NCBI GenBank assembly: GCA_041650895.1
Contig: JBAZKF010000001.1
Span: 637,181 to 701,180 of the forward strand
Direction of reading: 5' to 3'
Length of the DNA stretch: 64,000 nucleotides
Origin: Patescibacteria group bacterium
GTDB taxonomy: Bacteria > Patescibacteriota > Patescibacteriia > 2-01-FULL-39-33
In this document: positions 36,911 to 64,000 of the stretch, in pieces
How positions within the stretch are numbered: the stretch's first letter is position 1
Layout: the number at the start of each line of letters is the position of its first letter
Program-made: the position numbers and the translations under genes
Notes under the pieces: model-generated
What the model was told of the DNA's origin: nothing
What the model saw: only the letters and a program-made list of their open reading frames with translations
Database searches by the model: none

Positions 36911-38384
36911 TATAAGAGTTTGATCCTGGCTCAGGATGAACGCTGGCGGCGTGTCTAAGGCATGCAAGTCGAAAGGGTTTAGACCCTTGGCAAACGGGAG
37001 CGTAACGCATTGGTAACCTGCCTCTAAGTTCGGGATAACCCAGCGAAAGCTGGGATAATACCGGATGCGCCTGTCGGATCTATGTCCGACAAGCAAAGAT
37101 TTATCGCTTAGAGAGGGGCCTATGATCTATCAGCTAGTTGGCAGTATAAAAGACTACCAAGGCTATGACGGATAGCGGGTGTGAGAGCACGACCCGCCTC
37201 ACTGGGACTGAGACACTGCCCAGACACCTACGGGTGGCTGCAGTCAAGAATATTCCCCAATGGGCGAAAGCCTGAGGGAGCGACGCCGCGTGACTGATGA
37301 AGTCCTTCGGGATGTAAAGGTCTTTTCTCCGGGACGAAATCTGACGGTACCGGAGGAATAAGAGGTTGCTAACTCTGTGCCAGCAGCAGCGGTAATACAG
37401 AGACCTCGAGCGTTATCCGGATTGATTGGGCGTAAAGAGTACGTAGGCGGCTTCTTAAGCCGACGGTTAAATCCCACAGCTCAACTGTGGAACTGCCGTC
37501 GGAACTGGGAAGATAGAGTGTGGTAGAGGTTAGCGGAATTGCCGGTGTAACGGTAAAATGTGTTAATATCGGCAAGAACACCAGAGGCGAAAGCGGCTAA
37601 CTAGAACACAACTGACGCTGTTGTACGAAAGCGTGGGGAGCGAAAGGGATTAGATACCCCTGTAGTCCACGCCCTAAACGATGGATATTAGTCATTGGCA
37701 GTATCGACCCTGTCAGTGACGTCTAAAATAGCTAACGCATTAAATATCCCGCCTGGGAAGTACGATCGCAAGATTAAAACTCAAAGGAATTGACGGGGGC
37801 CCGCACAAGCGGTGGAGCATGCGGTTTAATTCGACGGTAACCGGAAAACCTCACCAGGGTTTGAAATATAGCTGCAAATCCAGGGAAACCTGGACTTCTT
37901 CGAGAGTGCTATACAGGTGCTGCATGGTTGTCGTCAGCTCGTGTCGTGAGATGTCGGGTTAAGTCCTTTAACGAGCGCAACCCTCATCTTGTGTTAAATA
38001 TTCACAAGAGACTGCCCCGCTCAACGGGGAGGAAGGTGGGGATGACGTCAAATCAGCATGGCCCTTACATCCTGGGCTACACGCATGCTACAATGGTTGG
38101 TACAGAGGGTCGCTAAGCCGTAAGGTGGAGCTAATCCCCAAAACCAATCTCAGTTCGGATTGAGGTCTGAAATTCGACCTCATGAAGCTGGAATCGCTAG
38201 TAACCGTGAATCAGCATGTCACGGTGAATACGTTCTCGGGCCTTGTACACACCGCCCGTCACACCAAGGGAGTTGGTAATACCCGAAGGCTGCCCTAGCG
38301 GCGGACGAAGGTAGGATCAATGACAGGGGTGAAGTCGTAACAAGGCATCCGTAGCGGAAGCTGTGGATGGATCACCTCCTTTCT
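36911..38384 (+). rRNA. rrs: 16S ribosomal RNA (complete)
   Basis: 5' AGAGTTTGATCCTGGCTCAG. 530 loop GTGCCAGCAGCAGCGGTAATAC. 3' end GGATCACCTCCTTTCT (anti-SD). The leader and trailer form a processing stem (CATTCTT...AAGAATG). Confidence 0.95.
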
Positions 38385-38542
38385 AAGGAGAAATTGAGAC
38401 AGCTCTCACGAGTTTGTCTCATGGTCGCTCTTATGCTGAATAAGCATAAGAATGGGTTTGGTTAAACTTTTTACCGCTATTTAGTTGTCAAATTTAATTT
38501 CGTTCATTGAAATATTGATTCAACAGACAGGAGGAATGACAA

Positions 38543-38821
38543 ATGCGAGTCAGGGAAGCTTTTTTAGTTGACACCCCAATGGGTGGATCAAATTTGGGTA
38601 TTCCCGCCGGAAGCTTTGGCATCAGAGTCAGAGTTAAGTGCGAAATGGAAGATAAAGATGGATGCACCGATGATGAAGGCAGGCAAATTTTGGATGCTAT
38701 GAGTGAGCAGTTAGAACATAGAGAAGTAAGCGTCGTCAGTATGCAGAATAATCTGATAGGGGAAGGAAGATTTTTTGATGTTGCATTAATCTTTAAGTTT
38801 CCCAAAGAGAATGAAAGCTAA
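38543..38821 (+). CDS. hypothetical 92-aa protein encoded in the 16S-tRNA spacer
   Basis: Strong SD ACAGGAGGAATGACAAATG. Long clean ORF followed by a hairpin terminator (38841-38877). Confidence 0.5.
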   Translation: MRVREAFLVDTPMGGSNLGIPAGSFGIRVRVKCEMEDKDGCTDDEGRQILDAMSEQLEHREVSVVSMQNNLIGEGRFFDVALIFKFPKENES

Positions 38822-38942
38822 AAAGATTAGTATTTTATATCCCGCACCGCGGAAGAGCGGGAGTCGGGATTTTTTAATGAAAGATTGCTAAGAAAATACA
38901 ATTTTGTTATAGTAATATTATTGAAAATTGTAAATTAATTAT

Positions 38943-39016
38943 GCGCATATAGCTCAGTTGGTTAGAGCGCGTCACTGATAATGACGAGGTCCCAAGTTCG
39001 AATCTTGGTATGCGCA
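38943..39016 (+). tRNA. tRNA-Ile(GAU)
   Basis: GCGCATA TA GCTC AGTTGGTTA GAGC G CGTCA CTGATAA TGACG AGGTC CCAAG TTCGAAT CTTGG TATGCGC A. Confidence 0.9.
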
Positions 39017-39058
39017 CAGGAAGTTGAAATATAAAACTTAAAACTTAAAATTCAGAAT

Positions 39059-61253: not shown

Positions 61254-61978
61254 TGTTCGTCCTTTCCTGTTGGGGGCGGTGTTTCTTTTTTCTTTTTCGT
61301 CTTCGCTCTCGGCCTTCCGGCGCGCGTCGGCTTTTTTGGGTTTGGGGAGGCGTTGGTTGTTGCAATTGACGTTGCTATAGCGAACAGCGCTGATTTCAAT
61401 TCTATAATCTCCTCGTCAATAACCTTTTGCCTAAGCTGATAGCTTTTGATAGCGCGCCAAATAATGTAAGCAACTCCGCCGATCAGCCATAACCACCAAG
61501 TGTATTTGAGTAGTAAGCCGATTATCGAAACAATCATAAGCAGTAATGTGCCGAATGAAAACAAGAGAAGCCAGGTGCCAGCCGCGACCATTGCCGGGAG
61601 TAATACTCCTAATACAAACGTAATAAAAATCATTGCACTAAGTGAGATATCCAGAGGGTGCTCATTAAGCAGTCTCTTTTTACCGCATTCTACCCAGCCG
61701 TCCAGCGTCTCATTGAAATTATCTTTGACTCCCGAGGTGAAAAGAATAATGTAGTAATAAATAAAAGCATGATAAGCGATTAGCCAATCGGGTGGTAGCC
61801 AAACAGCTTTATAATCTTTCCGACGGAATCGGCATTTGGCGCCGTTTACGATAATAACCAGTAAATGGATGAAAAAGGCTGAAAAAATGGCAAAAAATGC
61901 CAGTTCGGTGCCAAGCCGTACCAGATGATCAAAGTATAACGAAAAAGTCCAACTAATTGCTAAAAGTAACATTTCCAT
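61250..61978 (-). CDS. membrane protein, paralog 1 of the tandem triplet
   Basis: Start at MEMLLL after SD AAGGAGAAC. WLPPDW motif. Same C-terminal KKKKETPPPTGKDEQ. Confidence 0.55.
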   Translation of the reverse strand: MEMLLLAISWTFSLYFDHLVRLGTELAFFAIFSAFFIHLLVIIVNGAKCRFRRKDYKAVWLPPDWLIAYHAFIYYYIILFTSGVKDNFNETLDGWVECGKKRLLNEHPLDISLSAMIFITFVLGVLLPAMVAAGTWLLLFSFGTLLLMIVSIIGLLLKYTWWLWLIGGVAYIIWRAIKSYQLRQKVIDEEIIELKSALFAIATSIATTNASPNPKKPTRAGRPRAKTKKKKETPPPTGKDEQ

Positions 61979-62297
61979 GATGTTCTCCTTGCCTTTTATG
62001 GCTGTTTTGGTTTGCGCAGTAATGTTTTTAAGTTTTGAATGTGCCGATCTTCGTACCACAATATCATATAAGCGGTGAAAAGTCAATGGTTAGTGGAGAA
62101 GTTGGGGAAAAGTCAGCAGTTTCATTATATAAGTCAGAAAATAAAGGAATTGGGAGACAGAAGCTATTTTTTGATTGATCTGTTTGGTTTTTGTCGACAA
62201 AGTTATAAAACTTGTTTAAATTTAGGCAAATTATTCATTAATTTTGTCTTGCCGCGTGCTTATTTATCCGTATATTTTCTATTTTTTTATTTATCTC

Positions 62298-62326
62298 TTG
62301 ACATTGTATAAAAAATAACATATAAT
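62298..62326 (+). promoter_or_regulatory. perfect consensus sigma70 promoter TTGACA-N17-TATAAT upstream of the 23S rRNA gene
   Basis: Exact -35 and -10 hexamers with 17-nt spacing. Followed by a 15-codon mini-ORF (62447-62494) with an SD, then a hairpin/T-run at 62513-62541. The element TTGACAACTGAATAGTG (62623-62639) is shared with the 16S upstream region. Confidence 0.55.
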
Positions 62327-62789
62327 TGTAGACATCTGACTGACACCGTTGAATAACTGAAGATTCGGCTTTGCAGAGCCAAAATTCAGCTTAGTTTGTC
62401 TCTTTAATCCATAAATGCCGGAGGGCATATTGGAAAGGAACAATAATATGAGATTAAACATCACCAATAATTCTTCTCCAAGTCAAACGGACTAACCTTT
62501 TTAGTGTCCGCCAGAACCGCTTGGAGAAAGCGGTTTTTTTGTTAGCTTCCGAATCCGATCGATAATGGAATTTATCGCTCAAATTGCGGAAGTTAATGTC
62601 AAATATCCTGAACCTGGGAACATTGACAACTGAATAGTGTATAGTAAAGAAATGGGTAATTTAATGTCGCGCCAAAATTTATGGGCGTGGCAGCGAATTG
62701 CAATTATTAATGAGTACATACTTTTAGTATTTTAGTAATAAAATACAAAATAAGGAAAAACTCTTTTTAAGAGTTATCCAGATTCTTGC

Positions 62790-64000
62790 GATTAAACATT
62801 AAGGGCGAATGGTGGATGCCTAGACATCAAAAGGCGATGAAGGACGTAGCAGCCTGCGAAAAGCTTCGGGGAGGTGGCAAGCAACCTTTGATCCGGAGAT
62901 ATCCGAATGGGGAAACCCGGCGCGGCAAACCCGCGTCATTTGTGACTGAATTCATAGGTTACAAACGCAAACCCAGCGAAGTGAAACATCTCAGTAGCTG
63001 GAGGAAAAGAAAAAATTGAATCCTTAGTTCCGTTTTCTGCGTAAGCAGAACACGGATCTATGGATTGCATTCCGCGAGTAGTGGCGAGCGAAAGCGGAGC
63101 AGCCTAAACCTTAGCAGTGTTGACGGTGTGAAACTTTTCCCGCAAGGGGAAGGCGTAGCGCCGGCATAAAGGAGTGCCCGTTGCTGCTTTGGGGTGATGA
63201 TTATAACTTTCGGATTGCACTTATATCCGAGCGGAATAAAATTTTTAGCGGAACGGTTTTGGAACAGCCGGCCAAAGCGGGTGAAAGCCCCGTACGCGAA
63301 AAGAATCGTACTTCCGTCGTTATAATCTAGAGTACTACAGGACTCGTGAAATCTTGTAGGAATCCGCCATGACTATATGGCAAGGCTAAATACTTTTGAT
63401 GATCGATAGCGAACAAGTACCGTGAGGGAAAGGTGAAAAGCAGCCCGGTTAGGGCGATGAAATAGTATCTGAAACCATTTGCTTACAAACGAGTCGGAGT
63501 CCAAGGTCGTAGCAATACGAATTCTGGATGACGGCGTTCCTATTGAAGAATGAGCCAACGAGTTTATTCTGCGTTGCTTGCTTAATCCCTTCGGGGAGAA
63601 GGCATAGTGAAAGCGAGGATTAATAGTCCGAACAATTGTAGCGCGGATAAGACCCGAAACGAAGTGATCTATCCATGGCCAGGGTGAACCAGATGTAACA
63701 GTCTGGGAAGGCCCGAACCCACAAGCTGTGCAACACTTGGGGATGAGCTGTGGATAGCGGAGAAATTCCAATCGAACTTCGTGATAGCTGGTTCTCCTCG
63801 AAATAGCTTCAGGGCTAGCTTCGAAAATAGACCCGGGGGTAGAGCACTGAATGAGGACAGGTCCGCAAGGTTACTGTCTTCAATCAAACTCCGAATACCG
63901 GTAATCTTTATTTCGGAAGTCAGACTATGGGCGCTAAGGTCCATCAGTCAAAAGGGAAACAGCCCAGATCGCCAATTAAGGTCCCTAAATCTATGTTAAG
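62790..64000 (+). rRNA. rrl: 23S ribosomal RNA, 5' portion (runs off the window end)
   Basis: GGTGGATGCCTAGAC...GCGATGAAGGACGT...CCGAATGGGGAAACCC...GAAACATCTCAGTA are conserved 23S domain I motifs. ORF-track hits inside this span are spurious. Confidence 0.95.

Follow-up and report, generated by a model that had tools for sequence, protein, structure and literature searches.

In this study, we performed an analysis on the ribosomal RNA (rRNA) genes of a Patescibacteria DNA stretch of 64,000 nucleotides (contig JBAZKF010000001.1, of about 958 kb; hereafter the window), with emphasis on a short element located between the promoter and the coding region of its 23S rRNA gene. Judged by its sequence, the window is a stretch of a Candidatus Buchananbacteria chromosome (Patescibacteria, or candidate phyla radiation, CPR), and the top relatives of the TrmD gene immediately 5' of the 16S rRNA gene, at no more than 89% identity, were Candidatus Buchananbacteria and Patescibacteria metagenome-assembled genomes. 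The rRNA genes were placed with Rfam and the transfer RNA (tRNA) genes with ARAGORN throughout the 64 kb. Promoters were scored as matches out of 12 to the -35 and -10 hexamers, a scale on which just 11 sites on both strands of the whole window reached at least 11/12.

The complete 16S gene occupies 36908-38382 of the plus strand (Rfam RF00177, 1456.8 bits, model positions 1-1533), and the 5' part of the 23S gene (1.2 kb, cut by the window end) was placed by Rfam at 62789-64000 of the same strand. A preliminary description of this DNA, made from the sequence alone, had reported the two genes as unlinked by about 24 kb; the separation stood, while the gene ends shifted slightly, from 38384 to 38382 for 16S and from about 62790 to 62789 for 23S. 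In L082, a locus that extends past the window end, the full 23S gene (4743-8465) measures 3,723 nt and is followed by the 5S gene and a terminator. The 23S gene of L082 is also interrupted by an open reading frame (ORF) for a LAGLIDADG homing endonuclease of 161 aa, a type of insertion reported for CPR bacteria.

According to the available text of Brewer et al. (bioRxiv 10.1101/705046), rRNA genes are unlinked when more than 1500 bp lie between the nearest edges of 16S and 23S, a distance that the gap of 24,406 bp found here exceeds. The same portion names Patescibacteria as a clade with exclusively unlinked rRNA genes, in agreement with the tie to reduced genomes that had been proposed for the window. 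As far as that text goes, its unlinked genes resemble ours in that 23S stays with 5S and the genome is reduced, and nothing essential differs; beyond a general statement about operons, it gives no account of promoters, boxA, terminators or leaders for the individual units. Comparison of the locus in relatives gave the same picture. Synteny from TrmD to 16S was seen in about 30 Patescibacteria loci, and no 23S gene followed 16S in any of the eight relatives with at least 7 kb (7-8 kb) beyond a complete 16S gene. Conversely, among 78 Parcubacteria 23S loci, returned by a metagenome scan with a 25-mer from the 23S 5' end, a 16S gene was located upstream in just 2, and in about 34 of the 36 with enough upstream DNA there was none. 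Four of the 78 were assigned by exact protein matches, to Paceibacterota, Liptonbacteria and the Parcubacteria group. The rRNA gene set of this chromosome is single and split, which is the usual state in the phylum. With unlinked rRNA genes being standard in Patescibacteria, the separation of 16S and 23S is already known for the group and not novel here; the interesting part is the leader element of the 23S gene.

The leader element of the 23S gene

The 23S-5S unit of the window is preceded by a promoter that matches the consensus at 12/12 (TTGACA-17-TATAAT, 62298-62326, plus strand, as are all features of this leader). Downstream of it we identified a mini-ORF of 15 codons (MRLNITNNSSPSQTD) plus TAA at 62448-62495, whose putative Shine-Dalgarno-like sequence GGAAAGGA (62432-62439) is predicted to pair with an upstream CUCUUUAAUCC. 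An intrinsic terminator follows at 62513-62541, with a stem, a GGAG-containing loop and a run of seven T (-13 kcal/mol). The ORF segment TTCTCCAAG (62474-62482) is complementary to CTTGGAGAA (62520-62528) and is one strand of the predicted antiterminator. Beyond the terminator lies a boxA-like 17-mer, TTGACAACTGAATAGTG, at 62623-62639, downstream of which the 23S gene begins. A potential leader mini-ORF plus terminator had previously been marked at 62447-62541 and left unexplained; both are present, and their extents are refined to the coordinates given above.

Besides the window, Buchananbacteria 23S leaders were available from L134 and L147 (L088/L147). A metagenome scan with the 264-aa protein encoded next to the 23S gene gave no match, and a homology search with the same protein gave one relative, which led to the first related 23S leader. 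Both promoter hexamers are kept in L134 and L147 with a varying spacer, the terminator is identical, and the mini-ORF is conserved, its changes comprising the synonymous AGA>AGG, ACC>ACT and CAA>CAG and one replacement, CAA>CTG. The promoter hexamers, the 200 nt up to the terminator and the stretch from boxA to 23S are about 90-97% conserved in the two loci. The flanking intergenic DNA is not alignable, nor, in L147, is the DNA between terminator and boxA, and the adjacent protein is just 38% identical. With z = -3.6, the leader RNA has strong secondary structure. In the minimum free energy (MFE) fold of the free RNA of the window and L134, TTCTCCAAG pairs with CTTGGAGAA to give the antiterminator, and when their ORF was masked, the terminator folded instead.

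The 78 Parcubacteria loci showed no sequence similarity to the window leader by BLAST, and yet the same architecture of promoter, mini-ORF, terminator, boxA-like motif and 23S gene was found in them. In this common class, the promoter is TTGACA-16/18-TATAAT or TATACT, and the ATG stands 8-17 nt after the -10 hexamer, so that the ORF is leaderless or nearly so. Of the 66 loci with 450 nt or more of upstream DNA, 55 had an ORF of 11-13 codons, and 12 codons was the length in about nine of ten. The boxA-like motif (TTTGAAAA, TTTGACA or TTTAACA) is mostly situated 25-36 nt past the terminator, and within 120 nt in 35/44 sequences; the 23S gene starts 150-750 nt further on. A covariance model, R1, was built from 44 unique element copies. 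It found exactly one element per locus upstream of 23S in 63 of the 78 loci and had no significant match in a further 1.17 Mb of Patescibacteria DNA, showing an exclusive tie of the element to unlinked 23S genes. The best match to R1 in the window was at 62444-62564 (17.7 bits, E = 0.016), with the mini-ORF aligned to the model, and we regard the mini-ORF and terminator of the window as a variant of the element upstream of those 63 Parcubacteria 23S genes. Searches of Rfam 15 with gathering and permissive thresholds left the element unmatched in the window leaders (E <=10) and in 13 Parcubacteria loci (E <=1), and a full-text literature search, with most subscription journals outside it, returned no description of an rRNA leader peptide or attenuator. 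In addition, another hairpin, CUCCGAAUUGUAGAGUCGGAG, is conserved in many Parcubacteria 23S leaders (L090-L167); it follows the boxA-like motif closely, 40-90 nt past the terminator, and may be a boxB/boxC-like element.

The integrity of the mini-ORF was evident throughout the 44 copies. The ATG is invariant, and in-frame stops occur in 0/44, against 23/44 and 22/44 in the other two frames; composition-matched shuffles contained stops in 18.6/44 on average and never in fewer than 8 (2000 shuffles). Four elements that were found by the model alone, and had not been selected for an ORF, all carried an intact 12-codon ORF. The stop codon is TGA in 30 copies, TAA in 10 and TAG in 4, and never TGG. 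Codon 6 is always [AC]AN (K, N or Q), its third base being free to vary. At codons 11-12 Ser-Gly predominates, the C-terminal residues are S-G or T-D, and no amino acid is encoded by a run of codons. The length of the ORF is fixed while the sequences hold about 1.7 bits of entropy per position.

The alternative folds were likewise shared by most copies. A terminator hairpin exists in 44/44 sequences, and in 41/44 nascent and 35/44 full-length MFE folds its 5' half is paired to the end of the ORF (the final two codons plus the stop codon). Masking of the ORF plus 10 nt past the stop, which mimics a terminating ribosome, allowed the terminator to form in 42/44. When the ORF region was shuffled, the terminator formed in 82.5% of sequences, compared with 11% of native ones. 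In register, 79% of the cells of the antiterminator helix are paired, against 23-64% when the partner strand was slid. No promoter of at least 10/12 was detected between terminator and 23S in any of the 44 loci.

Proposed attenuation by a translated leader and its alternatives

We favor, with moderate confidence, the explanation that the 23S leader element is a ribosome-dependent transcription attenuator placed between promoter and boxA. In the window, polymerase would start at about 62334, and in the nascent RNA the 3' part of the 15-codon ORF would pair with the loop and flanks of the terminator at 62513-62541. On an ORF without a ribosome this antiterminator would persist, leading to read-through, loading of the Nus complex at boxA (62623) and synthesis of 23S-5S. 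A ribosome at the stop codon would instead mask the 3' part of the ORF, upon which the terminator would fold and the transcript end at 62541. In this way the element would act as negative feedback: plentiful idle ribosomes would lower 23S-5S output, and impaired or scarce translation capacity would raise it. In the common class, a leaderless mRNA would favor initiation by free 70S ribosomes. Since boxA follows the terminator, the decision on termination would precede the point where polymerase could become termination-resistant.

Related devices are known. In the antibiotic-responsive leaders of ribosome-related resistance genes of the erm, vmlR and msrD type, a ribosome that is slowed or stalled on a short ORF relieves a terminator, so that translation stress leads to ribosome-related output; those leaders have drug-specific stalling motifs and control resistance proteins, whereas no stalling motif was identified here. 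The attenuators of trpL, hisL and leuL share with our element a short leader ORF and a terminator before the gene; they also have mutually exclusive hairpins and a ribosome at the stop codon that favors termination, both of which are predicted for our element. The element differs from them in that rRNA would be regulated, that there is no run of codons for a single amino acid and that the common class is leaderless or nearly so; moreover, unlike in their super-attenuation, absence of translation is predicted to cause read-through. The absence of a regulatory codon run indicates that it is not an amino-acid-specific attenuator of the trp/his type, though it may work alike. In mycobacteria, leaderless polycysteine short ORFs act as attenuators that sense cysteine and control protein-coding operons (bioRxiv 10.1101/834739). 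Our element is similar to these in that its transcript opens with a short leaderless ORF, the translation status of which is predicted to control what lies downstream, but it has no codon bias of the Cys type and precedes 23S rRNA. By analogy, the leader element seems to resemble both leader-peptide and mycobacterial leaderless attenuators, and to depart from them in the missing regulatory codon run and in its rRNA target.

Several observations weigh against attenuation by a translated leader. First, both the translation of the ORF and the end of transcription at the hairpin are predicted. The usual proof of coding is gone: substitutions between close relatives fell on the three codon positions as 50/51/51, without third-position excess, and the ratio of synonymous to replacement changes was 14:98, the same as in the other frames. 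These values indicate that the peptide sequence is not under selection, which acts only on the integrity of the ORF and on a few positions (codon 6, codons 11-12). We take them as an argument against a functional peptide but not against translation, since they fit a leader whose translation matters and whose product does not. Second, the antiterminator is conserved mainly by invariance, and covariation is weak (2 double-change pairs, equaled in 48 of 500 shuffles). Third, an arrangement of promoter, ORF and terminator is absent upstream of 16S in 31 loci. Fourth, the Buchananbacteria variant is represented by three sequences only, its match to R1 in the window is weak at 17.7 bits, and it is unlike the common class in having 15 codons and not 12, a 5' untranslated region of 115 nt and a Shine-Dalgarno site. 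The MFE fold of the free L147 RNA already contains the terminator, and a weak promoter-like site (TTGTTA-16-GATAAT, 9/12) is located after the terminator of the window, at 62539, although it is lost in L147.

That last site bears on the alternative that promoter, mini-ORF and terminator constitute an independent small gene, encoding a tiny peptide or a small RNA of about 200 nt, with 23S transcribed from an unrecognised promoter past 62541. We consider this unlikely. In its favor, a 12/12 promoter and a good intrinsic terminator form a complete stand-alone set, and the leader RNA is, as noted above, strongly structured. The weak site at 62539 would provide the promoter needed, but its loss in L147 and the lack of any promoter of at least 10/12 at this place in the 44 Parcubacteria loci argue otherwise. 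The element is found solely upstream of 23S, once per locus, with boxA at a fixed short distance after it, and the end of the ORF is specifically complementary to the terminator, a property that is lost on shuffling and that a stand-alone gene does not need. Neither is the peptide sequence conserved, nor does any Rfam family match the RNA.

An attenuator operated by RNA alone, or by a bound ribosomal protein, Nus factor or small molecule, in which the ORF is a by-product of RNA motifs, appears improbable. In favor of such a device, attenuating leaders are known from ribosomal proteins, the peptide shows no purifying selection, and the conserved motif at the ORF end, AGCGGCUGA, doubles as a pairing strand. 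It would leave unexplained the invariant ATG, the ORF length that stays fixed across sequences with about 1.7 bits of entropy per position, and the absence of stops in frame when about half of the copies have them in the other frames. The use of all three stop codons but never TGG, the free third base of codon 6 and the position of the ATG 8-17 nt after the -10 hexamer, as leaderless initiation expects, also speak for an ORF that is read by ribosomes.

Finally, the idea that 16S and 23S stand 24 kb apart only because assembly or binning fused two loci can be dismissed as very improbable: a MEGAHIT assembly of the same population (European Nucleotide Archive, ERZ27247363) does break at 45316-45321, inside a perfect tandem repeat (195 bp x 2.2, 45209-45637), but the repeat unit is present at the ends of both resulting contigs, L003 (an independently assembled SPAdes contig from a relative whose 16S gene is 98.8% identical to that of the window) is colinear across the break, and a contig of another Buchananbacterium spans the full interval. 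The latter, Joint Genome Institute contig Ga0172379_10003706 (23,870 bp; L168 + L147), starts in the 16S 3' end, ends in the 23S 5' end and is colinear with window positions 38171-62912, so the link between 16S and 23S is real. Single contigs alone give 7 kb of non-rRNA DNA after 16S and 17 kb before 23S. The continuity of the locus, a concern of the preliminary description, is in this way settled by independent contigs, and synteny across the repeat is seen in L003 and L168. The MEGAHIT break falls at a 23-nt palindrome within the 195-bp unit. The repeat includes part of a tRNA-Pro(GGG) gene (45176-45247, minus strand), each unit opening with 39 bp that encode the 5' part of this tRNA, and it is also present in the related genome (L168, 7407-7691).

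Transcription units, the shared 17-mer and the intervening genes

Both rRNA genes of the window have the near-perfect sigma70 promoters noted before, and these are kept in relatives. The 16S promoter (TTGACA-17-TAAAAT, 11/12) lies at 36412-36440 of the plus strand, and a site of this type was found 297-660 nt 5' of 16S in 10/10 Buchananbacteria relatives. From this promoter, transcription of the first unit would pass through a 460-nt leader, containing a long hairpin and boxA, into 16S. The hairpin (36536-36609, plus strand) comprises 74 nt and ends in a U-run (-30.2 kcal/mol, z = -5.7). No conserved ORF was found in this hairpin region, and the 3' strand of the hairpin, CGGAUCCCUCUGUUUUUUCUU, is nearly invariant across Buchananbacteria 16S leaders (L002-L015). 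This strand also loosely resembles the 3' end of 16S (GGAUCACCUCCUUUCU).

The boxA-like 17-mer of the 23S leader has an identical copy in the 16S leader, at 36642-36658 of the plus strand, confirming the 17-nt element common to both leaders that had been described at 36642 and 62623. At up to 3 mismatches, 5 copies exist in the window against about 0.11 expected by chance, and the 17-mer is kept in 9/9 relatives' 16S leaders and in relatives' 23S leaders. Two 3-mismatch copies on the minus strand, at 5872 and at 59337, were taken as incidental; the former overlaps the TTGACA -35 hexamer of a plus-strand promoter-like site.

In the 16S unit, the 17-mer is complementary, with 2 G-U changes, to a trailer strand at 38475-38491 (plus strand) just 3' of 16S. 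At position 13 of the leader and its trailer partner, the window, L003 and L005 have T/A, and L009, L014 and L015 have A/T; this paired change in six genomes, together with the complement 3' of 16S, identifies the 17-mer as the leader strand of a leader-trailer helix. For the 23S copy, no complement within 4 mismatches was found after 23S-5S in L082, by which a role as half of a helix was ruled out there. The 23S gene has a processing stem of its own, the 5' strand of which (62774-62789, plus strand) pairs with the flank just past the 23S 3' end, outside the window, by complementarity read by eye in L082. Since the same 17-mer is present in both leaders and has no complement after 23S-5S, its identity reflects a sequence-specific role.

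From its position after the promoter and before each rRNA gene, we interpret the 17-mer as a putative boxA-like antitermination element, where the Nus antitermination complex would load at a predicted NusB-NusE(S10) site. Compared by eye with what we take to be the E. coli boxA, it matches at 8/13 positions of the core (UGCUCUUUAACAA) and 11/16 of the extended form (UGCUCUUUAACAAUUUAUCAG). In linked rrn operons, boxA is located after the promoter, before 16S and again before 23S (Nucleic Acids Res 2023, PMC10250234), and the 17-mer is likewise found after the promoter, upstream of 16S and of 23S. As in E. coli rrn (PMC10250234), there is a boxA-like sequence before both genes, a leader-trailer helix around 16S and a separate 23S stem; unlike there, the two boxA copies are on separate transcripts, and the copy in the 16S leader doubles as one strand of the leader-trailer helix. 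The shared 17-mer had been read as a sign that the two genes are co-regulated. Because ordinary linked operons also carry boxA before 16S and 23S, this sharing is no argument for co-regulation, and that claim was abandoned. The proposed mini-ORF attenuator, being located only in the 23S leader, points to separate and not common control of the two units.

The DNA after 16S proved as described in the preliminary account, with a spacer ORF, tRNA-Ile, tRNA-Phe, tRNA-Pro and a terminator, and with three features that had been overlooked, namely the near-complement of the 17-mer, a hairpin with T-run (38839-38875) and, starting at 38885, a promoter-like site. The spacer ORF, ORF92 (38543-38821, plus strand), encodes a hypothetical protein of 92 aa and has a ribosome-binding site; homologues with 74% and 64% identity are present in two relatives, and it has no Pfam match. 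A segment of 346 bp that includes it (38493-38838) is missing from the close relatives L003 and L005, and by this comparison ORF92 has been inserted downstream of the 16S trailer helix and upstream of the 16S terminator. If so, this protein-coding gene is probably co-transcribed with 16S rRNA. The terminator-like hairpin and T-run (38839-38875, plus strand; -17.4 kcal/mol) is the probable end of the 16S unit; in L003 its equivalent immediately follows the trailer helix, and L005 keeps it in part. The first unit would be closed by the leader-trailer helix and end past the inserted ORF92 at this hairpin.

The tRNA cluster is probably a third transcription unit besides those of 16S and 23S. A weak promoter-like site (TTGCTA-17-TATAGT with TG extension, 9/12; 38885-38913) would serve tRNA-Ile(GAT) (38943-39017), tRNA-Phe(GAA) (39059-39131) and tRNA-Pro(TGG) (39175-39249), all on the plus strand and found by Rfam/ARAGORN, up to a strong bidirectional terminator at 39281-39313 (-22.2 kcal/mol, z = -4.7). 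In L003 (13911-14225) and L009 (about 13680-13930), the tRNA-Phe(GAA) gene contains a group I intron (RF00028 of Rfam, 84-86 bits), which the window copy lacks. The remaining unit would start at the promoter at 62298, 24 kb downstream, and comprise 23S and 5S. The separate transcription proposed earlier, in place of one long precursor, was upheld: the genes have their own promoters, and a single 16S-to-23S precursor is implausible because terminators follow both 16S and the tRNA cluster, and minus-strand genes fill the roughly 11 kb before 23S.

The intervening 24 kb encodes mainly lineage-specific hypothetical proteins, as first described. Recognisable ones comprise a TrmB-family regulator, a DUF5060 protein of 1117 aa, an RNase T-like exonuclease and a DUF6638/AAA cluster. 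Directly before 23S, all long ORFs between 50.8 and 62.1 kb, which we take as genes, are on the minus strand. Among them, 53244-59206 encodes the DUF6638 protein, an AAA ATPase of 649 aa and three more hypothetical proteins, two with about 440 aa each and one with 257 aa; the order of this cluster is kept in the related genome (L088), and it could be a defence-like module. The immediate upstream neighbours of 23S are three paralogous membrane-protein genes in tandem (59590-62086, minus strand), two of which have an identical 53-bp 3' end (60457-60509, 61248-61300) encoding KKKKETPPPTGKDEQ. The sole homologue found for these genes is 38% identical, yet the gene order beside 23S is conserved. 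In addition, an 82-bp direct repeat with 98.8% identity (47465-47546 and 47639-47720) is contained in an ORF of 326 aa (46934-47914), and elsewhere in the window a stretch at about 17000-26000 has 24-31% GC against about 40-47% in the rest, possibly a horizontally acquired island.

Implications for rRNA synthesis in Patescibacteria

The arrangement has a practical lesson, in that amplicons spanning 16S, the internal transcribed spacer and 23S will miss Patescibacteria with unlinked genes. For annotators, the leader element would be a new feature to recognise upstream of 23S in a large and poorly understood part of bacterial diversity. It is short, the predictions are sharp, and more than 60 natural variants are available. 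The chances seem to us about even that the unlinked 23S-5S genes throughout Parcubacteria (Paceibacteria, Liptonbacteria, Buchananbacteria and others) are gated by a leader-peptide attenuator, in which translation unmasks a terminator.

Synthesis of rRNA is thought to be controlled at promoters, through guanosine tetraphosphate (ppGpp) and sensing of the initiating nucleoside triphosphate (iNTP), and to be shielded from termination by boxA complexes. If the attenuator exists as proposed, the 23S gene would be the first rRNA gene known to be under the control of a translated leader. This would add a new layer of control that couples translation capacity to 23S-5S output in bacteria with a single rRNA set and a minimal regulatory repertoire. 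In these organisms, ribosomes would feed back directly, in cis, on their own large-subunit RNA, which would give the classical 'ribosome feedback' a physical form.

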